64,000 bases of DNA from Squalus acanthias (Eukaryota), in assembly GCA_030390025.1 (NCBI GenBank), contig JASTWF010000187.1, positions 496,001 to 560,000 of the forward strand, written 5' to 3'. Shown in pieces: positions 1-56,039 of the stretch (the first letter of the stretch is position 1; every line of letters begins with the position of its first letter). The translations under genes and the position numbers were made by a program. Under the pieces are notes generated by a model. The model was not told the DNA's origin. It ran no database searches and saw only the letters and a program-made list of their open reading frames with translations.

Positions 1-3000
1 GATACAATGTGTTCCTGATACACTGTGTCCTGATATACTGTGTCGCTGGTACACTGTTTCCTGGTACACTGTGTCCTGATACACTGTGTCCTGATACACT
101 GTGTCCCTGATACACTGTGTCCTGATATACTGTGTCCTGATAAACTGTGTCCTGATATACAGTGTTCCTGATACACTGTTTACTGATATACCGTGTCGTG
201 ATACATTGTGTCCTGACATACTGTGTCCTGATATACTTTGTCCTGATACACTGTGTCCTGATACACTGTGTCCTGATACACTGTGTCCTGATATACTGTG
301 TTCCTGATACACTGTTGTCTGATACATTGTGTCCTGATATACTGTGCCCTGATATACTGTGTGCTGATACACTGTGTCCCTGATATACTGTGTCCTGATA
401 CACTGTGTGCTGATATACTGTGTCCCTGATACACTGTGTCCTGAAACACTGTGTCCTGATACACTGTGTCCTGATACACTTTGTCCTGATATACTGTGTC
501 CTGATACGCTGTGTCCCTGATACACTGTGTCCTGATATACTGTGTCCTGATATACTGTGTCCAGATACACTGTGTCCAGATATACTGTGTCCTGATACAC
601 TGTGTCCTGATAGTGTGTCCTGATATACTGTGTCCTGATACACTGTGTCCTGATATACTGTACCCTGATACACTGTGTCCTGGTACACTGTGTCCCTGAT
701 ATACTGTGTCCTGATACACTGTGTCCTGATATACGGTGTCCCTGATACACTGTGTTCCTGATACACTGTGTCCTGATACACTGTGTCCTGATATACTGTG
801 TCCTGATGCACTGTGTCCTGATACACTGTGTCCTGATATACTGTTTCCTAATATACTGTGTCCTGATACACTGTGTCCCTGATACACTGTGTCCTGATAC
901 ACTGTGTCCCTTTTATACTGTGTCCTGATAAACTGTGTCCTGATACACTGTGTCCTGATATACTGTATCCTGATACACTGTGTCCTGATACACTGGGTCC
1001 TGATAAACTTTGTCCTGATATACTCTGTCCTGATACACTTTGTCCTGATGCACTGTGTCCTGATTAACTGTGTCCTGATACAATGTGTCCTGATATACTG
1101 TGTCCTGATATACTGTGTCCTGATACACTGTGTTCCTGATACACTGTGTCCTGATATACTGTGCCCTGATACACTGTGTTCCTGATACACTGTGTTCTGA
1201 TATACTGTGTCCCTGATACACTGTGTCCTGATATACTGTGTCCTGATACAATGTGTTCCTGATACACTGTGTCCTGATATACTGTGTCGCTGGTACACTG
1301 TTTCCTGGTACACTGTGTCCTGATACACTGTGTCCTGATACACTGTGTCCCTGATACACTGTGTCCTGATATACTGTGTCCTGATAAACTGTGTCCTGAT
1401 ATACAGTGTTCCTGATACACTGTTTACTGATATACCGTGTCGTGATACATTGTGTCCTGACATATTGTGTCCTGATATACTTTGTCCTGATACACTGTGT
1501 CCTGATACACTGTGTCCTGATACACTGTGTCCTGATATACTGTGTTCCTGATACACTGTTGTCTGATACATTGTGTCCTGATATACTGTGCCCTGATATA
1601 CTGTGTGCTGATACACTGTGTCCCTGATATACTGTGTCCTGATACACTGTGTGCTGATATACTGTGTCCCTTATACACTGTGTCCTGAAACACTGTGTCC
1701 TGATACACTGTGTCCTGATACACTTTGTCCTGATATACTGTGTCCTGATACGCTGTGTCCCTGATACACTGTGTCCTGATATACTGTGTCCTGATATACT
1801 GTGTCCAGATACACTGTGTCCAGATATACTGTGTCCTGATACACTGTGTCCTGATAGTGTGTCCTGATATACTGTGTCCTGATACACTGTGTCCTGATAT
1901 ACTGTACCCTGATACACTGTGTCCTGGTACACTGTGTCCCTGATATACTGTGTCCTGATACACTGTGTCCTGATATACGGTGTCCCTGATACACTGTGTT
2001 CCTGATACACTGTGTCCTGATACACTGTGTCCTGATATACTGTGTCCTGATGCACTGTGTCCTGATACACTGTGTCCTGATATACTGTTTCCTAATATAC
2101 TGTGTCCTGATACACTGTGTCCCTGATACACTGTGTCCTGATACACTGTGTCCCTTTTATACTGTGTCCTGATAAACTGTGTCCTGATACACTGTGTCCT
2201 GATATACTGTATCCTGATACACTGTGTCCTGATACACTGGGTCCTGATAAACTTTGTCCTGATATACTCTGTCCTGATACACTTTGTCCTGATGCACTGT
2301 GTCCTGATTAACTGTGTCCTGATACAATGTGTCCTGATATACTGTGTCCTGATATACTGTGTCCTGATACACTGTGTTCCTGATACACTGTGTCCTGATA
2401 AACTGTGTCCTGATACACTGTGTCCTGATAAACTGTATCCTGATACACTGTTTCCTGATATACTGTGTCCTGATACACTGTGCCCTGATACACTGTGCCC
2501 TGATACACTGTGTCCCTGATATACTGTGTCCTGATAAACTGTGTCCTGATAAACTGTGTCCTGATATAGTGTTTCCCTGATACACTGTGTCCTGATATAC
2601 TGTGTCCTGATACATTGTGTTCCTGATACACTGTGTCCTGATATACTGTGTCCTGATACACTGTGTCCTGATATACTGTGTCCTGATACACTGTGTTCCT
2701 GATACTCTGTGTCCTGATACATTGTGTCCTGATAAACTGTGTCCCTGGTACACTGTGTCCTGATACACTGTGTCCTGATACACTGTGTCCCTGATACACT
2801 GTGTCCTGATATACTGTGTCCTGATACACTGTGTCCTGATATACTGTGTTCCTGATACACTGTGTACTGATATACGTGTCCCTGATTCACTGTGTCCTGA
2901 TACACTGTGTCCTGATATACTGTGGCCTGATACACTGTGTTCCTGATACACTGTGTACTGATATACCGTGTCCCTGATTCACTGTGTCCTGATAAACTGT

Positions 3001-6000
3001 GTCCTGATATACCGTGTCCCTGATACACTGTGTCCTGATATACTGTGTCGTGATACACTGTGGCCTGATACACTGTGTCCAGATATACTGTGTCCTGATA
3101 TACTGTGTCCTGATACACTGTGTCCTGATATACTGTGTCCTGATACACTGTGTCCTGATTTACTGTGCCCTGATACACTGTGTCCTGATACACTGTGTCC
3201 CTGATACACTGTGTCCTGATACACTGTGTCCTGATATACTGTGTCCTGATATACTGTGTCCTGCTACACTGTATTCCTGATACACTGTGTCTGATATACT
3301 GTGTCCCTGATACACTGTGTCCTGATACACTGTGTCCTGATACACTTTGTCCTGATACACTGGGTCCTGATATATTGTGTCCCTGATACACTGTGTCCTG
3401 ATATACTGTGTCCTGATACACTGTGTTCCTGATACACTGTGTCCTGATATACTGTGTCCTGATACACTGTGTCCTGACATACTGTGTCCTGATACACTGT
3501 GTACTGATATACCGTGTCCTGATACACTGTGTTCCTGATACACTGTGTCCTGATAAACTGTGTCCTGATACACTGTGTCCTGATAAACTGTATCCTGATA
3601 CACTGTTTCGTGATATACTGTGTCCTGATACACTGTGCCCTGATACACTGTGCCCTGATACACTGTGTTCCTGATACACTGTGTCCTGATATACTGTGCC
3701 CTGATACACTGTGTTCCTGATACACTGTGTTCTGATATACTGTGTCCCTGATACACTGTGTCCTGATATACTGTGTCCTGATACAATGTGTTCCTGATAC
3801 ACTGTGTCCTGATATACTGTGTCGCTGGTACACTGTTTCCTGGTACACTGTGTCCTGATACACTGTGTCCTGATACACTGTGTCCCTGATACACTGTGTC
3901 CTGATATACTGTGTCCTGATAAACTGTGTCCTGATATACAGTGTTCCTGATACACTGTTTACTGATATACCGTGTCGTGATACATTGTGTCCTGACATAT
4001 TGTGTCCTGATATACTTTGTCCTGATACACTGTGTCCTGATACACTGTGTCCTGATACACTGTGTCCTGATATACTGTGTCCTGATACACTGTTGTCTGA
4101 TACATTGTGTCCTGATATACTGTGCCCTGATATACTGTGTGCTGATACACTGTGTCCTGATATACTGTGTCCTGATACACTGTGTCCTGATATACTGTGT
4201 CCCTGATACACTGTGTCCTGATACACTGTGTCCTGATACACTGTGTCCTGATACACTGTGTCCTGATATACTGTGTCCTGATACACTGTGTCCCTGATAC
4301 ACTGTGTCCTGATATACTGTGTCCTGATATACTGTGTCCCTGATACACTGTGTCCAGATATACTGTGTCCTGATACACTGTGTCCTGATACAGTGTGTCC
4401 TGATATACTGTGTCCTGATACACTGTGTCCTGATATACTGTACCTGATACACTGTGTCCTGATACACTGTGTCCCTGATATACTGTGTCCTGATACACTG
4501 TGTCCTGATATACGGTGTCCCTGATACACTGTGTCCTGATAAACTGTGTCCTGATAGTCAGTGTCCTGATAAACTGTGTCCTGATACACTGTGTCCTGAT
4601 ACACTGTGTCCTGATATACTGTGTCCTGATATACTGTGTCCTGATACACTGTGTCCCTGATACACTGTGTCCTGATACACTGTGTCCCTTTTATACTGTG
4701 TCCTGATAAACTGTGTCCTGATACACTGTGTCCTGATATACTGTATCCTGATACACTGTGTCCTGATACACTGGTCCTGATAAACTTTGTCCTGATATAC
4801 TCTGTCCTGATACACTTTGTCCTGATGCACTGTGTCCTGATTAACTGTGTCCTGATACAATGTGTCCTGATATACTGTGTCCTGATATACTGTGTCCTGA
4901 TACACTGTGTTCCTGATACACTGTGTCCTGATAAACTGTGTCCTGATACACTGTGTCCTGATAACTGTATCCTGATACACTGTTTCCTGATATACTGTGT
5001 CCTGATACACTGTGCCCTGATACACTGTGCCCTGATACACTGTGTCCCTGATATACTGTGTCCTGATAAACTGTGTCCTGATAAACTGTGTCCTGATATA
5101 GTGTTTCCCTGATACACTGTGTCCTGATATACTGTGTCCTGATACATTGTGTTCCTGATACACTGTGTCCTGATATACTGTGTCCTGATACACTGTGTCC
5201 TGATATACTGTGTCCTGATACACTGTGTTCCTGATACTCTGTGTCCTGATACATTGTGTCCTGATAAACTGTGTCCCTGGTACACTGTGTCCTGATACAC
5301 TGTGTCCTGATACACTGTGTCCCTGATACACTGTGTCCTGATATACTGTGTCCTGATACACTGTGTCCTGATATACTGTGTTCCTGATACACTGTGTACT
5401 GATATAACGTGTCCCTGATTCACTGTGTCCTGATACAGTGTGTCCTGATATACTGTGTCCTGATACACTGTGTTCCTGATACACTGTGTACTGATATACC
5501 GTGTCCCTGATTCACTGTGTCCTGATAAACTGTGTCCTGATATACCGTGTCCCTGATACACTGTGTCCTGATATACTGTGTCGTGATACACTGTGGCCTG
5601 ATACACTGTGTCCAGATATACTGTGTCCTGATATACTGTGTCCTGATACACTGTGTCCTGATATACTGTGTCCTGATACACTGTGTCCTGATTTACTGTG
5701 CCCTGATACACTGTGTCCTGATACACTGTGTCCCTGATACACTGTGTCCTGATACACTGTGTCCTGATATACTGTGTCCTGATATACTGTGTCCTGATAC
5801 ACTGTATTCCTGATACACTGTGTTCTGATATACTGTGTCCCTGATACACTGTGTCCTGATACACTGTGTCCTGATACACTTTGTCCTGATACACTGGGTC
5901 CTGATATATTGTGTCCCTGATACACTGTGTCCTGATATACTGTGTCCTGATACACTGTGTTCCTGATACACTGTGTCCTGATATACTGTGTCCTGATACA

Positions 6001-8085
6001 CTGTGTCCTGACATACTGTGTTCCTGATACACTGTGTACTGATATACCGTGTCCTGATACACTGTGTTCCTGATACACTGTGTCCTGATAAACTGTGTCC
6101 TGATACACTGTGTCCTGATAAACTGTATCCTGATACACTGTTTCGTGATATACTGTGTCCTGATACACTGTGCCCTGATACACTGTGCCCTGATACACTG
6201 TGTCCCTGATATACTGTGTCCTGATAAACTGTGTCCTGATAAACTGTGTCCTGATATAGTGTTTCCCTGATACACTGTGTCCTGATATACTGTGTCCTGA
6301 TACATTGTGTTCCTGATACACTGTGTCCTGATATACTGTGTCCTGATACACTGTGTCCTGATATACTGTGTCCTGATACACTGTGTTCCTGATACTCTGT
6401 GTCCTGATACATTGTGTCCTGATAAACTGTGTCCCTGGTACACTGTGTCCTGATACACTGTGTCCTGATACACTGTGTCCCTGATACACTGTGTCCTGAT
6501 ATACTGTGTCCTGATACACTGTGTCCTGATATACTGTGTTCCTGATACACTGTGTACTGATATAACGTGTCCCTGATTCACTGTGTCCTGATACAGTGTG
6601 TCCTGATATACTGTGTCCTGATACACTGTGTTCCTGATACACTGTGTACTGATATACCGTGTCCCTGATTCACTGTGTCCTGATAAACTGTGTCCTGATA
6701 TACCGTGTCCCTGATACACTGTGTCCTGATATACTGTGTCGTGATACACTGTGGCCTGATACACTGTGTCCTGATATACTGTGTCCTGATATACTGTGTC
6801 CTGATACACTGTGTCCTGATATACTGTGTCCTGATACACTGTGTCCTGATTTACTGTGCCCTGATACACTGTGTCCTGATACACTGTGTCCCTGATACAC
6901 TGTGTCCTGATACACTGTGTCCTGATATACTGTGTCCTGATATACTGTGTCCTGATACACTGTATTCCTGATACACTGTGTTCTGATATACTGTGTCCCT
7001 GATACACTGTGTCCTGATACACTGTGTCCTGATACACTTTGTCCTGATACACTGGGTCCTGATATATTGTGTCCCTGATACACTGTGTCCTGATACACTG
7101 TGTCCTGATACACTGTGTTCCTGATACACTGTGTCCTGATATACTGTGTCGCTGGTACACTGTGTCCTGGTACACTGTGTCCTGATACACTTTGTCCTGA
7201 TACACTGTGTCCCTGATACACTGTGTCCTGATATACTGTGTCCTGATACACTGTGTCCTGACATACTGTGTTCCTGATACACTGTGTACTGATATACCGT
7301 GTCCTGATACATTGTGTCCTGATATACTGTGTCCTGATATACTGTGTCCTGATAGACTGTGTCCTGATATCCTGTGTCCTGATACACTGTGTCCTGATAT
7401 ACTGTGTTCCTGATACACTGTGTACTGATATACCGTGTCCCTGATTCACTGTGTCCTGATACACTGTGTCCTGATATACTGTGTCCTGTTACACTGTGTC
7501 CTGATATACTGTGTTAGAAGGACTGTGTCCTGATACACTGTGTCCTGATATACTGTGTTCCTGATACACTGTGGCCTGATATACTATGTCCCTGGTACAC
7601 TGTGTCCTGATATACTGTGTCCTGATACACTGTTTCCCTGATACACTGTGGGCTGATATACTATGTCCCTGGTACACTGTGTCCTGATATACTGTGTCCT
7701 GATACACTGTGTCCCTGATACACTGTGTCCTGATATACTCTGTCCCTGATATACTGTGTCCCTGTTATACTGTGTCCCTGATATATTGTGTCCCTGATAT
7801 ACTGTGTCCCTGATATACTGTGTCCCTGATACACTGTTTCCCTGATACACTGTGTCCCTGATATACAGTGTCCTGATACACTTTGTCCCTGATACACTTT
7901 GTCCCTGATACACTTTGTCCCTGATACACTGTGTCCTGATATACTGTGTCCCTGATACACTGTGTCCTGATCCACTGTGTCCTGATACATTGTGTCCTGA
8001 TACACTGTGTCCCTGATACCCTGTGTCCTGATATACTGTGTCCCTGATACACTGTGTCCTGATAAACTGTATCCCTGATACCAGT
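1..8085. repeat. 15-bp satellite (consensus CCTGATA[C/T]ACTGTGT, with 16-bp variants), ~8 kb, with higher-order duplications
   Basis: Continuous tandem array of roughly 500 units. A diagnostic variant block recurs at 1, 1245 and 3780, and another is offset by 1158 (5484/6642). It runs off the left edge of the window. Confidence 0.98.
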
Positions 8086-8589: not shown

Positions 8590-8740
8590 TGAGGAAATTA
8601 AGGGATTAATTTACAGTCCTGATATGAGTCCCTTCTGTTGGTGATGTGGAGGGTGTGACGTGGCTCCAGTAGCCGCCTCTATCAGGGAATCAATAGGCGG
8701 CGCCTGTAACATCGCCCCCATCTGCCGGGTATTTAACTGC
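8590..8740 (+). promoter_or_regulatory. Putative VH promoter: Ets/PU.1-like GAGGAA (8591), CRE-like TGACGT (8656-8661), TATA-like TATTTAA (8730-8736)
   Basis: Motifs lie 90-240 bp upstream of the leader ATG. No ATGCAAAT octamer was seen, consistent with the known octamer-less, CRE-type shark IgH promoters. Confidence 0.5.
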
Positions 8741-8828: not shown

Positions 8829-8874
8829 ATGAGGTCGGCGATTTCTCTCGGTCTGTTGCTGGCTTTCTTATCTG
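8829..8874 (+). CDS. IgH leader exon MRSAISLGLLLAFLS(G)
   Basis: ATG at 8829, hydrophobic signal peptide, 46 nt, phase-1 donor G|GTGAGT. A 128-bp intron ends in a poly-T ...TTACAG. Confidence 0.95.
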
Positions 8875-9002: not shown

Positions 9003-9368
9003 GTATCCAGTCAGATGTCGTGTTGACTCAGCCAAAGGCAGAGACCGGGCATCCCGGAGGCTCCCTGAGACTGACCTGTAAAACCAGCGGGTTCGATCTT
9101 GACAGATACTACATGCATTGGGTCCGATAGGTTCCCGGACAGGGGCTGGAGTGGCTGGTTAGCTATCGCAGTACATCGAACAACGTCTATGCCCCAGCGA
9201 TTTTGAGCCGATTTACTGCATCCAAATACATTTCAGACAGAATCTTCGCGTTGAACATGAAGACCCTGAGGACCGAAGACACCGCCATCTATTACTGTGC
9301 AAGAGAAACTATGCGGCACAGGGTCATGGGCCACTGGGGAGAAGGGACCATGGTGACGGTGGCTGCAG
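9003..9368 (+). pseudogene. IGHV: Joined VH-D-JH exon with in-frame stop
   Basis: Reads [52 protein letters not shown]...[31 protein letters not shown], then donor G|GTAAG. Both canonical Cys, the FR2 Trp and the WGxG motif are present. There are no RSS between V and J. Confidence 0.96.
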
Positions 9369-12180: not shown

Positions 12181-12414
12181 TTTAATTTCAATTCAACCGC
12201 ATTGATTTACACCGCATGACAGAGTAAATCTCCCTTTGCTTTGCCCAATCGTATCTTTCCTGTATCTGACCTGAGAGTATTTGTTGCAACAGTATTGAAG
12301 GAACCTTAATCGGCATATAACTATCATGATGCGGAGATGCCGGCGTTGGACTGGGGTGGACAAAAATGAGAAGTCGCACAACACCAGGTTATAGTCCAAC
12401 AGATTTATTTAAAA

Positions 12415-12452
12415 TTACAAGCTTTCGGAGCTATCCTGCCCCTTCTTCAGGT
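12415..12452 (-). ncRNA. Minimal hammerhead ribozyme (PLE type), inverted copy
   Basis: Reverse complement of the copy at 13389-13420. Confidence 0.7.
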
Positions 12453-13385
12453 AAAGTTACACTGAATGAATCTACAAAAGTTCATAGAATATAAACACAG
12501 ATACTACAGAGATACAATCTTTCCTTATATCAAAGACACACCAAGAGCACAGCCAAGACAATGAGATGTGTCCCAGGGGGTCCAACGTGTCAAATCCTGC
12601 TGACTGCAGCAGATCTCTCTCCATAACCCTTCCTCTCTTCGTCTTTTTAGGGGTTTGTTTTTTGTGTTTATTTTTTTGTGTTTGTTTTTTAAAAAACTGG
12701 AAAGACAGACAACGATGTCAAGTCACGTTCTGTAGCGTGACATGAACCCGATATCCCTATTGAGGCCGTCCTCATGAGTGCGCAACTTGGCTATCAGTTT
12801 CTGCTCGATGATTTTGCGTTGTCGTGTGTCTCGAAGGCCGCCTTGGAGAACGCTAACCCGCAGATCCGAGGCTGAATGCCCTTGACTGCTGAAGTGTTCC
12901 CCGAATGGGAGGCAGGATAGTTGCCTCCCAGTCGGGGAACACTTCAGCAGTCAAGGGCATTCAGCCTCGGATCTGCGGGTTAGCGTTCTCCAAGGCGGCC
13001 TTCGAGATACACGACAACGCAAAATCATCGAGCAGAAACTGATAGCCAAGTTCCGCACTCATGAGGACGGCCTCAATAGGGATATCGGGTTCATGTCACG
13101 CTACAGAACGTGACTTGACATCGTTGTCTGTCTTTCCAGTATTTTAAAAAACAAACACTAAAAAACAAACACAAAAAACAAACCCCTTAAAAAGACGGAG
13201 AGAGAGGAAGGGATATGGAGAGAGATCTGCTGCAGTCAGCAGGATTTGACACGTTGGACCCCCTGGAACACATCTCATTGTCTTGGCTGTGCTCTTGGTG
13301 TGTCTTTGATGTAAGGAAAGATTGTATCTCTGTAGTATCTGTGTTTATATTCTATGAACTTTTGTAGATTCACTCAGTGTAACTT

Positions 13386-13424
13386 TACCTGAAGAAGGGG
13401 CAGGATAGCTCCGAAAGCTTGTAA
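13386..13424 (+). ncRNA. Minimal hammerhead ribozyme (PLE type)
   Basis: CTGAAGA (13389-13395), stem II GGGGC/GCTCC, GAAA (13413-13416), palindromic AAGCTT. Typical of Penelope pLTRs. Confidence 0.72.
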
Positions 13425-13784
13425 TTTTAAATAAATCTGTTGGACTATAACCTGGTGTTGTGCGACTTCTCATTTTTGGCATATAACTAATCAGACGCGA
13501 GTGCTCGAGCCAGATATATAAAGATAGACCCTTTTTTCGGTGAAACAACCGCGCATTAATTGAGTTTAATCGGCTTTCAAAAAAATCTGCCCCATTTATA
13601 ATGAATTTTAACATTTAAATATTTTGAGTATCAGATAATGATTGAATGAGATTGGCCTGATCCTGAGCTCACATTCAGAACAATCAGTTTCAGGAAGTGA
13701 CTGTAACGCTGCAGCAAGCAGTGCCTGTTCTGATCTGATGGGAGACTGGAAGTTATTTTGACTTTTTAAATAGACATTGTAATG

Positions 13785-15307: not shown

Positions 15308-15607
15308 CGACACTGTCTCCTTCCACCCTCTACGCCCTGCACTCCTGCTGTCAACAACCCAACACTGACGGCTCCATCACCTTCGGCTGTTTGGCGATGG
15401 ACTACTTCCCCGAAATCACCAGCCTTTCCTGGAAGAAAGATAAAGAGCCGCTCACCACTGGATTGAAGACTTATCCGTCAGTGCTCAACAAGATGGGAAC
15501 CTACACCCTGAGCAGCCAGTTAACCATCAACGAGTCAGAGGTGGGGAGCAGCACAATCTACTGCGTGGTTCGACAAAGTGGGGCGGACTGGAGCATCACA
15601 ATGCCAG
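15308..15607 (+). CDS. IGHM: IgM CH1 exon
   Basis: (A)[43 protein letters not shown]...[16 protein letters not shown]; 300 nt, AG/GT phase 1, C1-set motifs. Closely resembles shark Cmu1. Confidence 0.95.
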
Positions 15608-16928: not shown

Positions 16929-17245
16929 GTCCTAACGGGACCCCATCCGTCCAACTGTTATCCTCACGGTGAGTTCCAGGGACCAAATCACCAGCAGCAG
17001 ACATGCAACCGTCGTGTGTTCAATCATGGATTTCCGTCCAAAGTCACTAACCGTGAATTGGCTGAAGAATGGACGACTCATGCATTCGGGCTTCGTCACC
17101 TCTCCCGTCTGTGAAGTGAACGGGACCTTCTCGGCGACCAGTCTGCTGACAGTGCCCGCCGGGGAATGGTTCACCGGCTCGGTCTACACCTGCCAGGTCA
17201 CTCATGAAGGGGTTACCGAAATCAAAAACATCACCAGATCTCAGG
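16929..17245 (+). CDS. IGHM: IgM CH2 exon (1-bp deletion near the 5' end as assembled)
   Basis: Domain frame reads [35 protein letters not shown]...WLKNG...YTCQVTHEG...NITRSQ. Acceptor TTTTAAG|G, donor G|GTAAG. Length is 317 nt rather than 318. Confidence 0.93.
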
Positions 17246-20868: not shown

Positions 20869-21177
20869 ATCGTTCCTCCAGCAGCGATCCAGTGATTACT
20901 CTTCGGCAACCGTCACTAGAACAGGTCTTACTGGAGGCGACGGTGACCTTAACCTGCGTCGTGCCTGATGCTCCTTATGGAGTCACGGTGTCCTGGACCC
21001 GAGGAAAGGAGATGCTGATATCAGAGATTGCGGTTAAACCCGGAGAGGATCCCAACAGCGTGATCAGCAAGTTAAACATCTCGACACAAGCCTGGCTGAG
21101 TGGGGATAAGTTCACCTGCGTGGTGAGCCATCAGCATATGCCGACTGATGTAAGAGCTTCCATCCACAAGGAAACAG
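20869..21177 (+). CDS. IGHM: IgM CH3 exon
   Basis: (D)[31 protein letters not shown]...SWT...FTCVVSHQ...SIHKET; 309 nt, open frame, phase 1. Confidence 0.95.
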
Positions 21178-21672: not shown

Positions 21673-22063
21673 CTAAAGATCCGCGGCAACCGTCCGTGTC
21701 TGTCCTCCTGCCCTCGGCAGAAGAAGTCTTCGCTCAGAGGTCCGTCGCCCTCACCTGCTTAGTGAGAGGTTTCTACCCTCGAGAGATCTTCGTCAAGTGG
21801 ACCGTCAATGATAAGCCGGTGAATTCCAGCAACTACAGGAACACCGAGGTGTTGGCGGAGAACGGCAGCAGTTCCTTCTTCATCTACAGCCTGTTATCCA
21901 TTGCAGCAGAAGAGTGGGCCAGCGGCGCTTCTTACTCCTGTGTGGTGGGACATGAAACGATCCCCTTGAAGATCATCACCAGAACGGTCAATAAATCCAG
22001 CGGTAAACAATGTTTGTGAACATTTCCTTTGTACTGATGGACTCCGTCAATTCTTATCAATGA
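21673..22063 (+). CDS. IGHM: IgM CH4 exon (21673-22002) plus secretory tailpiece (frameshifted: stop at 22017-22019, ancestral stop at 22061-22063)
   Basis: (A)[18 protein letters not shown]...[17 protein letters not shown]...YSCVVGHE...NKSSGK. The internal donor G|GTAAAC at 22002/22003 is for TM splicing. The shifted frame retains [16 protein letters not shown]. Confidence 0.95.
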
Positions 22064-27452: not shown

Positions 27453-27580
27453 ATTCCTCAGAACACATCTGGATTGAAGACTTTGAGGACGAGAGCGAAA
27501 ACATCAGGACAACCGCTTCCACATTCATCATCCTGTTCTTCCTCAGCATGTCCTACAGCGCTGCCGTCACTCTGGTGAAG
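27453..27580 (+). CDS. IGHM: IgM TM1 exon
   Basis: (D)SSEHIWIEDFEDESENIRTTASTFIILFFLSMSYSAAVTLVK, donor AAG|GTGAGA. Acidic spacer plus the CART motif (TF..LF..S..YS..VT). Confidence 0.95.
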
Positions 27581-27774: not shown

Positions 27775-28549
27775 CGTCGCTGTGTTCTGAATATAAAATA
27801 TGTCCTCTTGGTGAATCTCAACGTAAAATGCCCCCAGTTAAAAGATCCGAATCTATAGCTGAGAAAAATACAAACGGGATTTCCGTCTTTCTGTTTGAAA
27901 TGTGTGAGTTAATCGTGGCTATAATGTAAATGTATCTTAGAGTTGTTTGAATATTTCACGTGTAAATAAGTCACTTTTCTCATTCCTAATTCACAATTGT
28001 TCCCTACCCTTTATGCGGAGCCCCTGTTTTCTCTCTCTGGTGTCTGTTGCAGATGTACAGATAGCTGGCAGCTCAGACCGACTGTGTTCAGTTCTCAATG
28101 TGACGCTCAGTTATTATATTCACTTTGTGTTACCTTTTCAAACCGTTCTCTGTAAATCCTACTCTGTGAAATTGTTCATAAATCTGGAATGACAAATTGA
28201 CTAACTTAGACTTTGCTGATTTCCTTTCTCCGAGGTCCTCCACACCACTCTATTTTCCCTCTCGCACTTTCTTTATTTCCCCGACAGGTATCTTTCATCC
28301 GTCCTGTCTGGGTTGTCATTGAACTCAAGTCTCTTCGGTTAAGGAGCCGCTGCGTCACCCAGTGTCCCATCAGAGAAAATACACCTTTACCCAGACATTT
28401 TTATGTCAAGCCCGAAAGGTGCAATGACTGCACAGTGACCAAGTAGTCTCCTCTAATATTATGATCTGTAGAGTCACATGTCAGGTTCTATTAACGAGCA
28501 GGTCGCTGCTCCATCACAGCCTGATACAGTGCAGTACATGGCACAGTAA

Positions 28550-35844: not shown

Positions 35845-36296
35845 GTATTTGAATGGATTCACCACATTTTAACTCCGTGTCTCCCATTCATTCTGATTTT
35901 GCTGTTCAATGCTCTGACCGTCAGACACATTCTAGCGGCCAGCAGAGCCCGCAGGAGACTCCGGGCCCACAGCAATGGGGAGAATCAGAGTGACCCAGAG
36001 ATGGAGAGCCGGAGAAAGTCCATCGTCTTACTCTTCTGTGTCTCGGGCAATTTCATCCTGTTACATGTGTTATTACTGAGAACTTTCCTCGCTGTCCAGA
36101 TTGCGAAAGTTACTTATTTCACATGTTCGATTTCAATGAATCAAATTTTATTCTGGAGGAAAGCGGATATATGCTTCAGTTTTTGAGTTCCTGCATCAAC
36201 CCGTTTATTTATGCAGGGACCCAGAGTAAATTCAGAGAGGAGTTAAATAATGGGGTGAAATATCCACTGAGTCTCATTGTTAAATTATTGAAATGA
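35845..36296 (+). pseudogene. 3' half (TM5-TM7) of a GPR139-like receptor, paralog of the gene at 54730-59834
   Basis: FEWIHHILTPCLPFILILLFNALTVRHILAASRARRRLR...ESRRKSIVLLF, one -1 shift near 36128, then ...SSCINPFIYAGTQSKFREEL...K*. Confidence 0.9.
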
Positions 36297-38636: not shown

Positions 38637-41600
38637 ATAGAAACATAGAAACATAGAAAATAGGTACAGGAGTAGACCATTCGGTCCTTCGAGCCTGCAC
38701 CGCCATTCAATGCGTTCATGGCTGAACATGCTACCTCAGTACCCCATTCCTGCTTTCTCGCCATACCCCTTGATCCCCCTAGTTGTGAGTGTTATATCTA
38801 ACTCCCTTTTGAATATATTTAGCGAACTGGCCTCAACAACCTTCTGTGGAAGAGAATTCCATAGATTCACCACTCTCTGGGTGAAGAAGTTCCTCCTCAG
38901 CTCAGTCTTAAATGGCTTCCCCTTAATCCTTAGACTGTGACCCCTGGTTCTAGTTTTCCCTAACATTGGGAACATTCTGCCCGCATCTAATTTGTCTAAA
39001 CCAGTCAGGATTTTAAATGTCTCTATAAGATCCCCCCTCATTCTTCTGAACTCCAGAGGATACAAGTTCAGTTGACCCAATCTTTCTTGATATGTCAGAC
39101 CGGCCTTCCCAGGAATCAATCTAGTGAACCTTCGCTGCACTCCCTCAATAGCAAGAATGTCCTTCCTTAAGTTAGGAGACCAAAACTGCGCACAATACTC
39201 CAGGTGTGGCCTCACCAAGGCCCTGTACAACTGCAGCATCACCTCCCTACTCCTGTACTCAAATCCCCTTACTATGAAGGCCATCATTCCGTTTGCTTTC
39301 TTGACTGCCTGCTGCACTTGCATTCCCACCTTCAGTGACTGATGTACCATGACGCCCAGGTCTCGTTGCACCTCCCCTTTCCCTAATCTGCCACCATTCA
39401 AGTAATAGTCCGCCTCTCTACTTTTACCACCAAAGTGGATAACCTCACATTTATCCACATTGTACTTCATCTGCCATACATTTGCCCATTCACCCAACCT
39501 GTCCAAGTCACTCTGTAGCCTCCTAGCATCCTCCTCATTGTTCACACTGCCTCCCAATTTAGTGTCATCCGCAAATTTGGAGATATTACATTTAATCCCT
39601 TCGTCCAAATCATTAATATATAATGTAAACAGCTGGAGTCCCAGCACCGAACCCTGCGGTACCCCGCTGGTCACTGCCTGCCATTCTGAAAAGTACCCAT
39701 TTACTCCTACTCTTTGTTTCCTGTGTGCCAACCAGTTCTCAATCCACGTCAACACATTACCCCCAATCCCATGTGCTTTAACTTTGCTCACCAATCTCTT
39801 GTGTGGGACCTTGTCGAAGGCCTTCTGAAAGTCCAAATACACCACATCTACTGGTTCCCCCCTGTCCACCCTATTGGAAACATCCTCAAAAAATTCCAGA
39901 AGATTTGTCAAGCATGATTTCCCTTTCACAAATCCATGCTGACTTGGACCTATCATGTCGCCACTTTCCAAATGGTCTGTTATGACATCTTTAATAATTG
40001 CTTCCATCATTTTACCCACGACCGATGTCAGGCTGACCGGTCTATAATTCCCTGCTTTCTCCCTCCCTCCTTTTTTAAAAAGAGGGGTTACATTGACCAC
40101 CCTCCACTCCATCGGAACTGATCCAGAGTCTAAGGAATGTTGGAAAATGATCGTCAATGCATCCACTATTTCCAAGGCCACCTCCTTAAGTACTCTGGGA
40201 TGCAGACCATCAGGCCCCGGGGATTTTTCAGCCTTCAGTCCCATCAATTTTCCCAATACCTTTTCCCGTCTAATAAGGATTTCCCTCAGCTCCTCCCTCT
40301 TACCAGATCCTCTGACCCCTTTTATTTCCGGCAGGTTGTGTGTGTCCTCCACAGTAAACACCGAACCAAAGTACTTGTTCAATTGATCCGCCATTTCCTT
40401 GTTCCCCATTACGACTTCCCCTGTTTCCGACTGCAGGGGACCTACGTTTGTTTTTACTAACCTCTTTCTTTTTACATATTTATAGAAGCTTTTGCAGTCC
40501 ATTTTAATGTTCTCTGCAAGCTTCCTTTCATATTTTATTTTCCCTGCCCTAATCAAACCCTTCGTCCTCCTCTGCTCAGTTTTGAAGTTCTCCCAGTCCC
40601 CGTGTTTGCTGCTACTTCTGGCCAATTTGTATGCAACTTCCTTGGTTTTAATACTATCCCTGATTTCCCTTGTTAGCCATGGTTGAGCCACCTTCCCTTT
40701 TTTATTTTTACGCCAGACCGGGATGTACAATTGTTGTAGTTCATCCATGCGATCTCTAAATGTCTGCCATTGCCCTTCCACTGATAGCCCCTTAAATATC
40801 GCTTGCCAATTTAACCTCACCAATTCACGCCTCATACCCTCAAAGTTGCCCTTATTTAAGTTCTGGACCATGGTCTCTGACTTAACTGTTTCCTTCTCCA
40901 TCCTAATGTAGAACTCCACCATACTATGGTCACTCTTCCCCAGGGGGCCTCGTACCACAAGATTGCTGATTAGTCCTTCCTCATTACACAACACCAGTCC
41001 AGGATGGCCTCCCCTCGAGTTGGTTCCTCAACATATTGGTTTAGGAAACCATCCCTTAAACACTCCAGGAAATCCTCCTCCACCGTATTGCTTCCAGTTT
41101 GAGTAGCCCAATCTATATGCATATTAAAGTCACCCATGATAACTGCCGTGCCTTTTTTGCACGCACCTTTGATTTCCTGTTTCATACCCTCCCCCACCTC
41201 ACTACTGCTGTTTGGAGGTCTGTACACAACTCCCACTAACGTTTTCTGCCCTTTGGTGTTCTGCAGCTCAACCCATATTGATTCCACATCCTCCAAGCTG
41301 ATGTCCTTCCTAGCTATTGCATTAAAATCCTCTTTAACCAGCAATGCTACCCCACCCCCTTTTCCTTTTATTCTATCCTTTCTAAATGTTGAATACCCCT
41401 GGATATTCAGTTCCCAGCCTTGATTGTTCTGGAGCCACGTCTCTGTAATCCCAATCACATCGTATCCGTTAACATCTATTTGCACAGTCAATTCATCCAC
41501 CTTATTACGGATACTCCTTGCATTAAGACACAGAGCCTTTAGGCTTGTTTTATTAACATCCTTTGTCCTTTTAGACTTATGATTTAGTATGGCCCTTTGT

Positions 41601-42575
41601 GTTTCTTGCCTTTGTTTACTCGGCCTTCCCCTATTGTTTCTCACCCTTCTAACATTTGTTTCTGACTGCATATTACTTCCCCCTGTTTCGCTACATAGGT
41701 TCCCATTCCCCTGCCATATTAGTTTAAATCCTCCCGAACTGCTTTAGCAAATATTACCCCGAGGACATCGGTTCCAGTCCTGCCCAAGTGCAGACCGTCC
41801 CTTTTGTACAGGTCCCACTTCCCCCAGAACTGGTTCCAATGCCTCAGGAATTTGAATCCCTCCCTCCTGCACCACTGTTCAAGCCACGTATTCAATCTCA
41901 CTATCCTGTTCTCTCTATTCTGATTAGCACGTGGCCCTGGTAGCAATCCAGAGATTACTACCTTAGAGGTCCTACTTTTTAATTTAGCTCCTAGCTCCCT
42001 AAATTCTGCTTGTAGGACCTCTTCCCGCTTTTTACCTATATCGTTGGTACCTACATGCACCACGACAGCTGGCTGGTCACCCTCCCTCTTCAGAATGTTC
42101 TGCAGCCGCTCCGAGACATCCTTGACCCTTGCACCAGGGAGGCAACATACCATCCTGGAATCTCGTTTGCGGCCACAGAAACTCCTGTCTATTCCCCTTA
42201 CAATTGAGTCCCCTATCACTATAGCCCTACCACTCTTTTCCCGCCCTGCTGTGCAGCAGAGCCAGCCATGGTGCCATGAACCTGGCTGCTAGTGCCTTCC
42301 CGTGGTAGGCCATCTCCCCCAACAGTATCCAAAGCGGCATACCTGTTTTGGAGGGAGATGACCACAGGGGTCTCCTGCACTACCTTCCTGATATTGCCCT
42401 GCTTCTTGGTCACCCATTCACTGTCTGTCCTAGCCTTTACCTGCGGTGTGGACAACTCACTAAATGAGCGATTCACCGAGTTCTCGGCATCGTGCATGCT
42501 CCAGAGTGAGTCCACCCGCAGCTCCAGCACCGCCATGCGGGCTGTCAGGAGCTGCAGCTGGACACACTTCCCGCT
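38637..42575 (-). mobile_element. Young, nearly full-length CR1 LINE: ORF1 (SGNH esterase) and ORF2 (APE + RT)
   Basis: ORF1 has IGDSIVRG...VHVGTND...DGLH. APE has LNARSIRNK/ITETW/GDFN/SDH. RT is open for 752 aa with FADD. One frameshift each in ORF1 (~42240) and ORF2 (~40995). (ATAGAAAC)n tail. Confidence 0.97.
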
Positions 42576-54729: not shown

Positions 54730-55637
54730 TCATTTAAATAATTTAACAATTAGACGCAGTGGATAATTCACCCCATTCTTTAACTCCTCTCTGAATTTAC
54801 TCTGGGTCCCTGCATAAATAAACGGGTTGATGCAGGAACTGAAAAGCTGAAGCATATATCCGCTTTCCTCCAGAATAAAATTTGATTCCTTGAAATTGGA
54901 ACCTGAGAAATAAGTAACGCTCGCAATCCGGGAATAGAGGAAAGTTATAAGAAACAACAACCACAACAGGATGAAACTGCCCGAGATACAGAAGAGTAAG
55001 ACGATGGACTTTCTCCGGCTCTCCATCTCTGGGTCTCCCTTATCCTCCCCATTTCTGTGGGCCCGGAGTCTTCTGCGAATTCTACTGGCCGCTAGAATGT
55101 GTCTGACGGTTAAAGCATTGAGCAGCAAAATCAGAATGAATGGGCGACACGGGGTTAAAATGGAGGAAGTCCATTCATATGCGGCCCATGCAGGTGAGGT
55201 ATAAAATATTAATTTTATATTGCAGAGCCAGGATACCTCGTTAATTATAATGAAAGGCTCAAACACAAAGTACCAGGGGATGTTTCTAACACAGCTCAGT
55301 GTACAGATCGTTCCGATAACCACGGCCGCCGTTTTCTCGGTGCAATATTTTGTTTTCAGCTTCTGGCAGCAGATGGCTACATATCGATCAAAGGTGAACA
55401 CGACCGTTACCCAGACAGAACTTTCTATGACCCCATAATTTAGAGCAAGTTTGAGACTACAGACCGGAGTGATGGACATGAAATTGAATGGGAAATAAAT
55501 ACCGACAATCCGGTTTAATATCACAGCCGTGATAATGACCAGGAGATCCGTCTCCGCCATGGACACCAGGTAGTAAGTGATACATCTGGAGAGACCGCAC
55601 CTTCCTCGGGACAGGATCACAATCACTGTCAAATTAG
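54730..55637 (-). CDS. GPR139-like class A GPCR, exon 2
   Basis: Acceptor TCTTTTACAG|CT, then (A)NLTVIVILSRGRCGLS...FDRYVAICCQKLK...CINPFIY...K*. Has DRY and NPxxY motifs and an open frame. Belongs to the expanded elasmobranch GPR139-like family. Confidence 0.93.
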
Positions 55638-56039
55638 CTGTAAAAGAGACAGACAGACAGTCAGTGAATAAGTGTTTGAGAGAGAAAGAGAGAGCAGACA
55701 ATGCCGGAAATACTCACAGCTCATGCAGCGTCTGTGAACAGAGACAGAGTCAGAGTTTCTGGTCGGTGAACTTCCGTTCCATAGGAGAAAGGCCCCTCCC
55801 ACAATGCAGCGCTCCCTCAGCACTGCACTGCGCTCTCAGGATAAACTTTGGGCTTAGTCCAACAGCACACATTGAAATTACAACATTGGGAGTCAGATAC
55901 GACAGATGACATCAGTATGCGTCCTCACTCAATGTGGAGTAAAGAACGAGGACGAGAAGAGTACGAGACATTGGCAGGTCTAAGGAGCAGTAATACAGTA
56001 TCTAGATCGATTTAACAGAAATATGTTGTTCACACTGCA

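Follow-up and report, generated by a model that had tools for sequence, protein, structure and literature searches.

The 64-kb window analyzed here, a stretch of 64,000 nucleotides of a Squalus acanthias contig (G000:C988:496001-560000) within a 3.7-Gb genome, harbors an immunoglobulin heavy-chain gene in which V, D and J occupy one exon. We put a probability of roughly 87% on the reading that this gene is a shark-type IgM minicluster, that an in-frame fusion of its V, D and J took place, for which RAG activity in an ancestral germ cell is the most likely cause, and that it is now likely a pseudogene.

Structure of the joined cluster

All features of the gene lie on the forward (+) strand. The exon map begins with an intact leader exon at 8829-8874 (phase 1, MRSAISLGLLLAFLS), preceded by a TATA-like box at 8730-8736, which is 99 nt 5' of the ATG; the motif sits at -99 in all 25 loci with a located leader. 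The joined V-D-J exon spans 366 nt (9003-9368), with an AG acceptor on its 5' side and a GT donor on its 3' side, and is read in one frame from V through J. Its VH part (9003-9306) was assigned as a shark IgM-type V by a Pfam V-set match, by 73% identity with the horn shark VH HV01_HETFR (60-73% with other chondrichthyan VH), and by a tree with genomic paralogues, where it grouped with split clusters of the same genome (L016, L018 and L026 nearest) with support of 98/86, the bootstrap not being fully settled. A junctional stretch of 16 nt (9307-9322), consisting of trimmed D and/or N bases, separates V from the JH part (9323-9368), whose donor is intact.

The constant region follows with Cmu1 (15308-15607, open), Cmu2 (16929-17245, 317 nt, frameshifted), Cmu3 (20869-21177, open), and Cmu4 (open) with its secretory tail (21673-22063). 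Downstream are an open TM1 exon (27453-27580) and a candidate TM2 exon (28053-28064), the latter reading MYR*, versus LYR* in paralogues. The Cmu1 donor is GTCTGT, whereas all 8 of the other Cmu1 exons that we read have GTTAGT. Together, the Pfam matches and the exon map give the layout of a cartilaginous-fish IgM minicluster: one VH, one JH, its own four C1-set Cmu exons, a secretory tail and TM exons. We take the constant region to be mu, based on the four-domain layout and on its likeness to shark mu sequences. No damage was seen in the promoter, the leader, the splice sites or the TM exons, and because the leader intron and all of the C introns are kept, the gene is not a retrocopy. A PDB search with the gene returned generic antibody V domains only.

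The V-J exon has no recombination signals or intervening DNA

A strict RSS pattern had no matches in the 64-kb window. A loose scan of the same 64 kb gave 4 weak candidates, each with 3 mismatches and none within the V-J exon; two of them lie on the minus strand inside the J-CH1 intron. A similar loose scan reveals clear RSS in the split paralogues. We also searched for the 1.1-1.3 kb of DNA that lies between V and J in split relatives. The intervening DNA of 4/4 such relatives was unmatched in the window or in the 30 kb on either side of it, and all 4 sequences matched a control split cluster. The RSS search and the intervening-DNA comparison thus agree with the preliminary description of this DNA, which had noted no RSS and no separate D or J between leader and CH1. 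V, D and J are fused in this gene, the RSS and intervening DNA are gone, and the introns are kept. The description had also stated that V runs in frame into WGEGTMVTV; the single frame from V to J was confirmed, but a TAG at 9128-9130, which it did not mention, interrupts V.

The join is shared by two diverged copies

A second copy of the gene lies on the same contig, 267 kb downstream (G000:C988:771965), with the same junction and all three of the lesions described below. The two copies differ at 4/1201 nt around V and at 30/12,878 nt (0.23%) over 7 of 8 aligned segments, a sum that excludes 12200-13780, a segment of 1,582 nt with 7 differences. The block common to both copies (C988:501-578 kb and 767-845 kb) is about 75-80 kb long and ends near the contig end. 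The second copy may be a recent duplicate or the other haplotype; either way the join is inherited, though the other haplotype would mean that one animal only is represented. That the join and the lesions occur in two diverged copies favors a join in the germline over capture of a somatic one, since a single B-cell clone would not be expected to give both.

No split counterpart of the gene was found in the genome, the best non-self V match being 91% identical among the 40 of 94 candidates scored. Compared with its nearest split relatives, the gene differs by about 7.5% in the promoter, 4-9% in the leader intron and 7-9% in the J-C intron, and the C exons and V differ as well; its private variants include G8850, T8873 and changes in the J-C intron. 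Differences spread across promoter, introns and C exons indicate divergence on a germline scale.

A rearrangement made in a B cell and captured by the assembly is therefore an extremely improbable source of the join. B-cell joins that are in frame would also yield the in-frame excess reported below, but such a capture does not account for a join common to two copies that have diverged, for the lack of a split allele among the candidates scored, or for the recurrence of other joins in this genome as diverged pairs or triplets. In addition, a B cell would not be selected with a framework stop in its chain. The description of this locus as a germline-joined IgH cluster is supported, if indirectly, by the two diverged copies, by the split allele that was not found, and by the frequency of joined clusters in the genome.

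Public sequencing runs sharing words with the locus numbered 19, with a best share of 0.22 and none listed as RNA. One DNA run, X1, contained contigs identical to the leader region (96 nt) and to the J-C intron (82 nt), pieces that are at most 95% like the other loci fetched; X1 may be the assembly's own sample. Runs X1, X2, X4 and X6 were read as contigs (X1 to about 55%), and as none of these spans 9310-9345 or has the T at 9128, they were weighed neither for nor against a germline join or expression. Contigs of X1 and X2 with loose ends at window position 9305 each have a joined V-J junction unlike those listed from the genome; they may come from further joined clusters, from polymorphic ones, or from somatic joining.

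Joined clusters across the genome

The top 30 V matches in the genome fell into three equal groups of 10 (full joins, partial joins and split clusters), and several joins occur as diverged pairs. The partial joins take several forms side by side: VD-DJ (L007, L015, L020, L030), VDD-J (L010, L012, L013), V-D-DJ (L023, L026) and V-DDJ (L025).

A genome-wide search pattern that was blind to frame identified 13 joined exons with 7 distinct junctions, all of them in frame. It missed L006, which has a trimmed J, is out of frame and was found by BLAST, and L082, which is in frame and belongs to the L081 junction family. With L006 included, 7/8 distinct full joins are in frame, versus an expected 1/3 (binomial p 0.0026); this count involves small numbers, assumes independent joins and misses heavily trimmed ones.

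We read the C regions of 6 further joined genes. No exon read in L004 or L005 is interrupted, L003, L022 and L083 carry lesions, and L084 is open in its secreted form. For L021, no C exon was present in the 20 kb fetched. L004 (G000:C29:7663396) and L005 (G000:C29:10253560) are fully joined and in frame, with open V and Cmu1-4, a normal secretory tail and TM exons. The VDJ of L003 is identical to that of L004, and the Cmu3 of L003 is broken. Judged from their reading frames, L004 and L005 would be better candidates than the window gene for inherited fixed antibodies. A further cluster (L076, L077; G000:C130:145001-165000) has Cmu3 and Cmu4 each present twice.

The CDR3 and J start resemble a germline J segment

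The CDR3 had been called atypical, and the J start unusual for want of Y/F-D-Y; both characterizations were largely lost on comparison with germline J segments. The CDR3 has 12 residues. V supplies AR and the first two bases of the E codon, and J supplies VMGH, leaving only the 16 nt at 9307-9322 as junctional. VMGH is close to VMGY, the start of a germline J in a split cluster, from which it is separated by a single T-to-C change; the two J sequences differ at 5/46 nt overall. An xM(G/D)Y start was found in 5/13 RSS-flanked germline J segments of the same genome, one of them being VMGY, and VMGY or VMGC also begins J in three other joined loci.

Both the V and the J end of the junction are trimmed at coding-end positions. 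The longest match of the junctional bases to 12 germline D sequences was 5 nt (shuffle p 0.41), while 2 of the 4 other junctions tested reached p<0.05. The 16 unassigned nucleotides could reflect extensive trimming and base addition, decay after the join, or a combination of these. Most likely RAG acted on a split cluster in a germ cell and removed what lay between V, D1, D2 and J, the ends being trimmed and some bases added, a mechanism that the available portion of PMC2193156 establishes for shark Ig genes. As the window junction carries no significant D remnant, RAG-type joining rests on established work and not on the junction's own sequence.

A hypermutation footprint in V was considered and rejected, the 6 adjacent changes found being inside the range of 1-10 seen in 21 other V genes.

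It had been suggested that this joined gene may be undescribed. In a word-limited protein search (73 candidates), the junction was absent from the 5 matches examined out of 45, among which the sole protein with 99% coverage was a joined whale shark sequence with 63% identity and a different CDR3. We found no paper on the gene in the open-access literature, and nothing specific to it in the available text of PMC12227049, PMC2192082 and PMC13433984. To be undescribed is, however, what one expects of a pseudogene whose family runs to dozens of copies.

The gene carries three lesions

The first lesion is the in-frame TAG in framework 2 (9128-9130, +), corresponding to precursor codon 58 and read as WVR*. 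The family majority has CAG at this position, so the stop is a C-to-T substitution and not a homopolymer slip. The second is a 1-nt deletion near the 5' end of Cmu2, where the acceptor lies 22 nt from the conserved PTV codons, whereas the other Cmu2 exons read, 8 in number, have an in-phase distance of 17 or 23 nt. The deletion sits in a G run, which is error-prone for sequencing, yet it is common to both copies. Apart from the shift, Cmu2 is open, is 93-96% like its closest paralogues and has both splice sites. The third is a 1-nt deletion in the secretory tail, which now reads KSSGKQCL* (stop at 22017-22019) instead of a 20-residue tail ending in SCQ*. The former penultimate Cys codon has become TAT, and the shifted tail still has a penultimate Cys.

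Spliced as read, the chain would meet stops at codons 58 and 252. With its V nonsense codon and Cmu2 frameshift, the gene is likely now a pseudogene, and a transcript, if one is made today, would be predicted to end at codon 58 and give no antibody. Because of the same two lesions, the suggestion that the gene presently specifies an innate-like antibody of fixed specificity went unsupported.

It is very unlikely that the gene still works in the species, with the stop a rare allele or an assembly error and with Cmu2 skipped to give an IgM1gj-like chain of three C domains. A membrane form that skips Cmu2 (leader-V-Cmu1-Cmu3-Cmu4-TM1-TM2) would meet only the V stop at codon 58 before its end, a penultimate Cys remains in the shifted tail, and the replacements in V are concentrated in framework 3, all of which would suit such a gene. 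However, the stop and the Cmu2 deletion are present in both copies, the stop arose by substitution, and a Cmu2 that is otherwise open, well conserved and flanked by both splice sites is unlike an exon that has long been skipped. Just as doubtful is the idea that an IgM1gj-like antibody evolved independently a second time and that the gene is its relic or a null allele. In that case Cmu2 skipping, the shortened Cys-Leu tail and framework-3 replacements selected for a fixed ligand would have come before silencing by a single C-to-T change, and intact alleles or orthologues might survive. On this bold reading, the 7/8 in-frame joins and the two intact joined genes would point more broadly to a stock of inherited IgM heavy chains kept ready-made in this shark.

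Possible past expression and probable decay

On the preferred reading, that of a germline join followed by decay, the gene, being in frame, may once have yielded a chain of fixed specificity. We lean slightly toward such past expression, based on the in-frame excess and on the intact promoter, splice sites and TM exons. The earlier suggestion that the gene was once expressed therefore gains mild support from 7/8 joins being in frame, although this support is indirect only.

A variant of the preferred reading, which we consider possible but somewhat doubtful, is that the join was made in the germline but never gave a working antibody, RAG having cut an already damaged cluster and the frame having been kept by chance (1 in 3). 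The tail deletion and Cys-to-Tyr change are shared with a neighboring cluster of different V family and junction, so that the C-region damage may predate the join. The framework changes fit neutrality, and the available portion of PMC2193156 cites joined horn shark H genes whose expression was undetected. In opposition to this are the in-frame excess among distinct full joins of the genome and a promoter, leader, splice sites and TM exons that are all intact.

The changes within the gene say little on this point. Framework changes numbered 3 synonymous and 14 nonsynonymous, with no departure from neutral (p 0.58), and the framework omega of 1.7, versus 0.57 in intact genes, was not significantly different (Fisher p 0.11). 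As the framework ratio differs neither from neutrality nor from intact genes, selection cannot be read from these changes, and relaxed selection is not demonstrated. For private changes in the Cmu exons, with indel and stop rows dropped, omega was 1.02 versus 0.53-1.1 in 5 comparison clusters and was uninformative.

The neighboring cluster also bears on the order of damage. As it combines the tail lesion with a V of another family and an in-phase Cmu2, this tail deletion probably came first, unless conversion carried it from one cluster to another. Damage would have begun with the secretory tail, followed by the Cmu2 deletion and the V stop, and duplication or allelic divergence would then have produced the two copies.

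Neighboring cluster and other window content

The neighboring joined cluster (G000:C988:405420-about 427000; L081, L061-L063) has a V of a second, distant family on Cmu exons that are 93-98% like those of the window gene. Besides the tail deletion and the Cys-to-Tyr change, it shares the WGEG J, and it has a GG J donor, a broken Cmu1 and the in-phase Cmu2. The combination suggests C-region conversion or V exchange between clusters. The V family of L081, which we presume to be IgW-like, has at least 12 members in the genome.

An 8-kb satellite array (window 1-8081, period 15/46) ends about 750 nt 5' of the leader and masks the left edge of the duplicated block. The window also contains a 327-aa open frame with a rhodopsin-family 7TM domain (54730-55713, -), a fragment resembling this frame near 35994-36296 (+), and a LINE-type element with endonuclease and reverse transcriptase frames (38736-41743, -). 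Further LINE-type fragments are dispersed downstream of Cmu4.

Discussion

The available text of PMC5192425, PMC4279169 and PMC2435157 presents IgH clusters with partial or full joins as general among cartilaginous fish. The window gene resembles the fully joined IgM clusters of horn shark and skates, as far as these are described in the available parts of PMC5192425, PMC4279169, PMC2193156 and PMC2435157, in being a minicluster with a leader, a joined VDJ, four Cmu exons, a secretory tail and TM exons, with its introns kept. Like the horn shark and skate genomes as these parts present them, the genome studied here mixes joined, split and partly joined clusters. Unlike those joined clusters, with which it was compared by layout, the window gene is interrupted by a stop in V and a frameshift in Cmu2, and its junction is presumably a different one.

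The nurse shark IgM1gj, according to the parts of PMC5192425 and PMC4279169 available, is without Cmu2, is abundantly expressed in neonates and has a joined sigma-2 light chain as its partner. The window gene is similar to it in carrying a completely joined VDJ on a Cmu constant region, and Cmu2 is damaged in the one and missing in the other. Unlike IgM1gj, however, it is not a gene of three C domains, because it has a Cmu2 exon that is frameshifted but has both splice sites, and its joined V is not an open frame, being broken by the TAG in both copies.

For the nurse shark NS4 (kappa) light-chain genes, the available portion of PMC2193156 gives 4/6 joins in frame and 2 pseudogenes, with some of the genes expressed and with an origin of RAG type from split genes. 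The joins considered here resemble these in their probable origin and in the mix of in-frame and pseudogene copies within one genome. The NS4 V-J joins in that portion show little sign of N addition, whereas the window heavy chain has 16 junctional nucleotides that match no D better than shuffled sequences do.

By itself the window gene adds little, being a single broken example of a layout that has long been known from sharks and skates. It contributes a data point to the question of whether selection maintains germline-joined antibody genes or whether they are a side effect of RAG activity in germ cells, alongside the roughly equal numbers of split, partly joined and fully joined IgM clusters among the matches examined and the excess of in-frame joins. 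It is the intact joined genes, rather than the window gene, that make the question of selection versus by-product testable.
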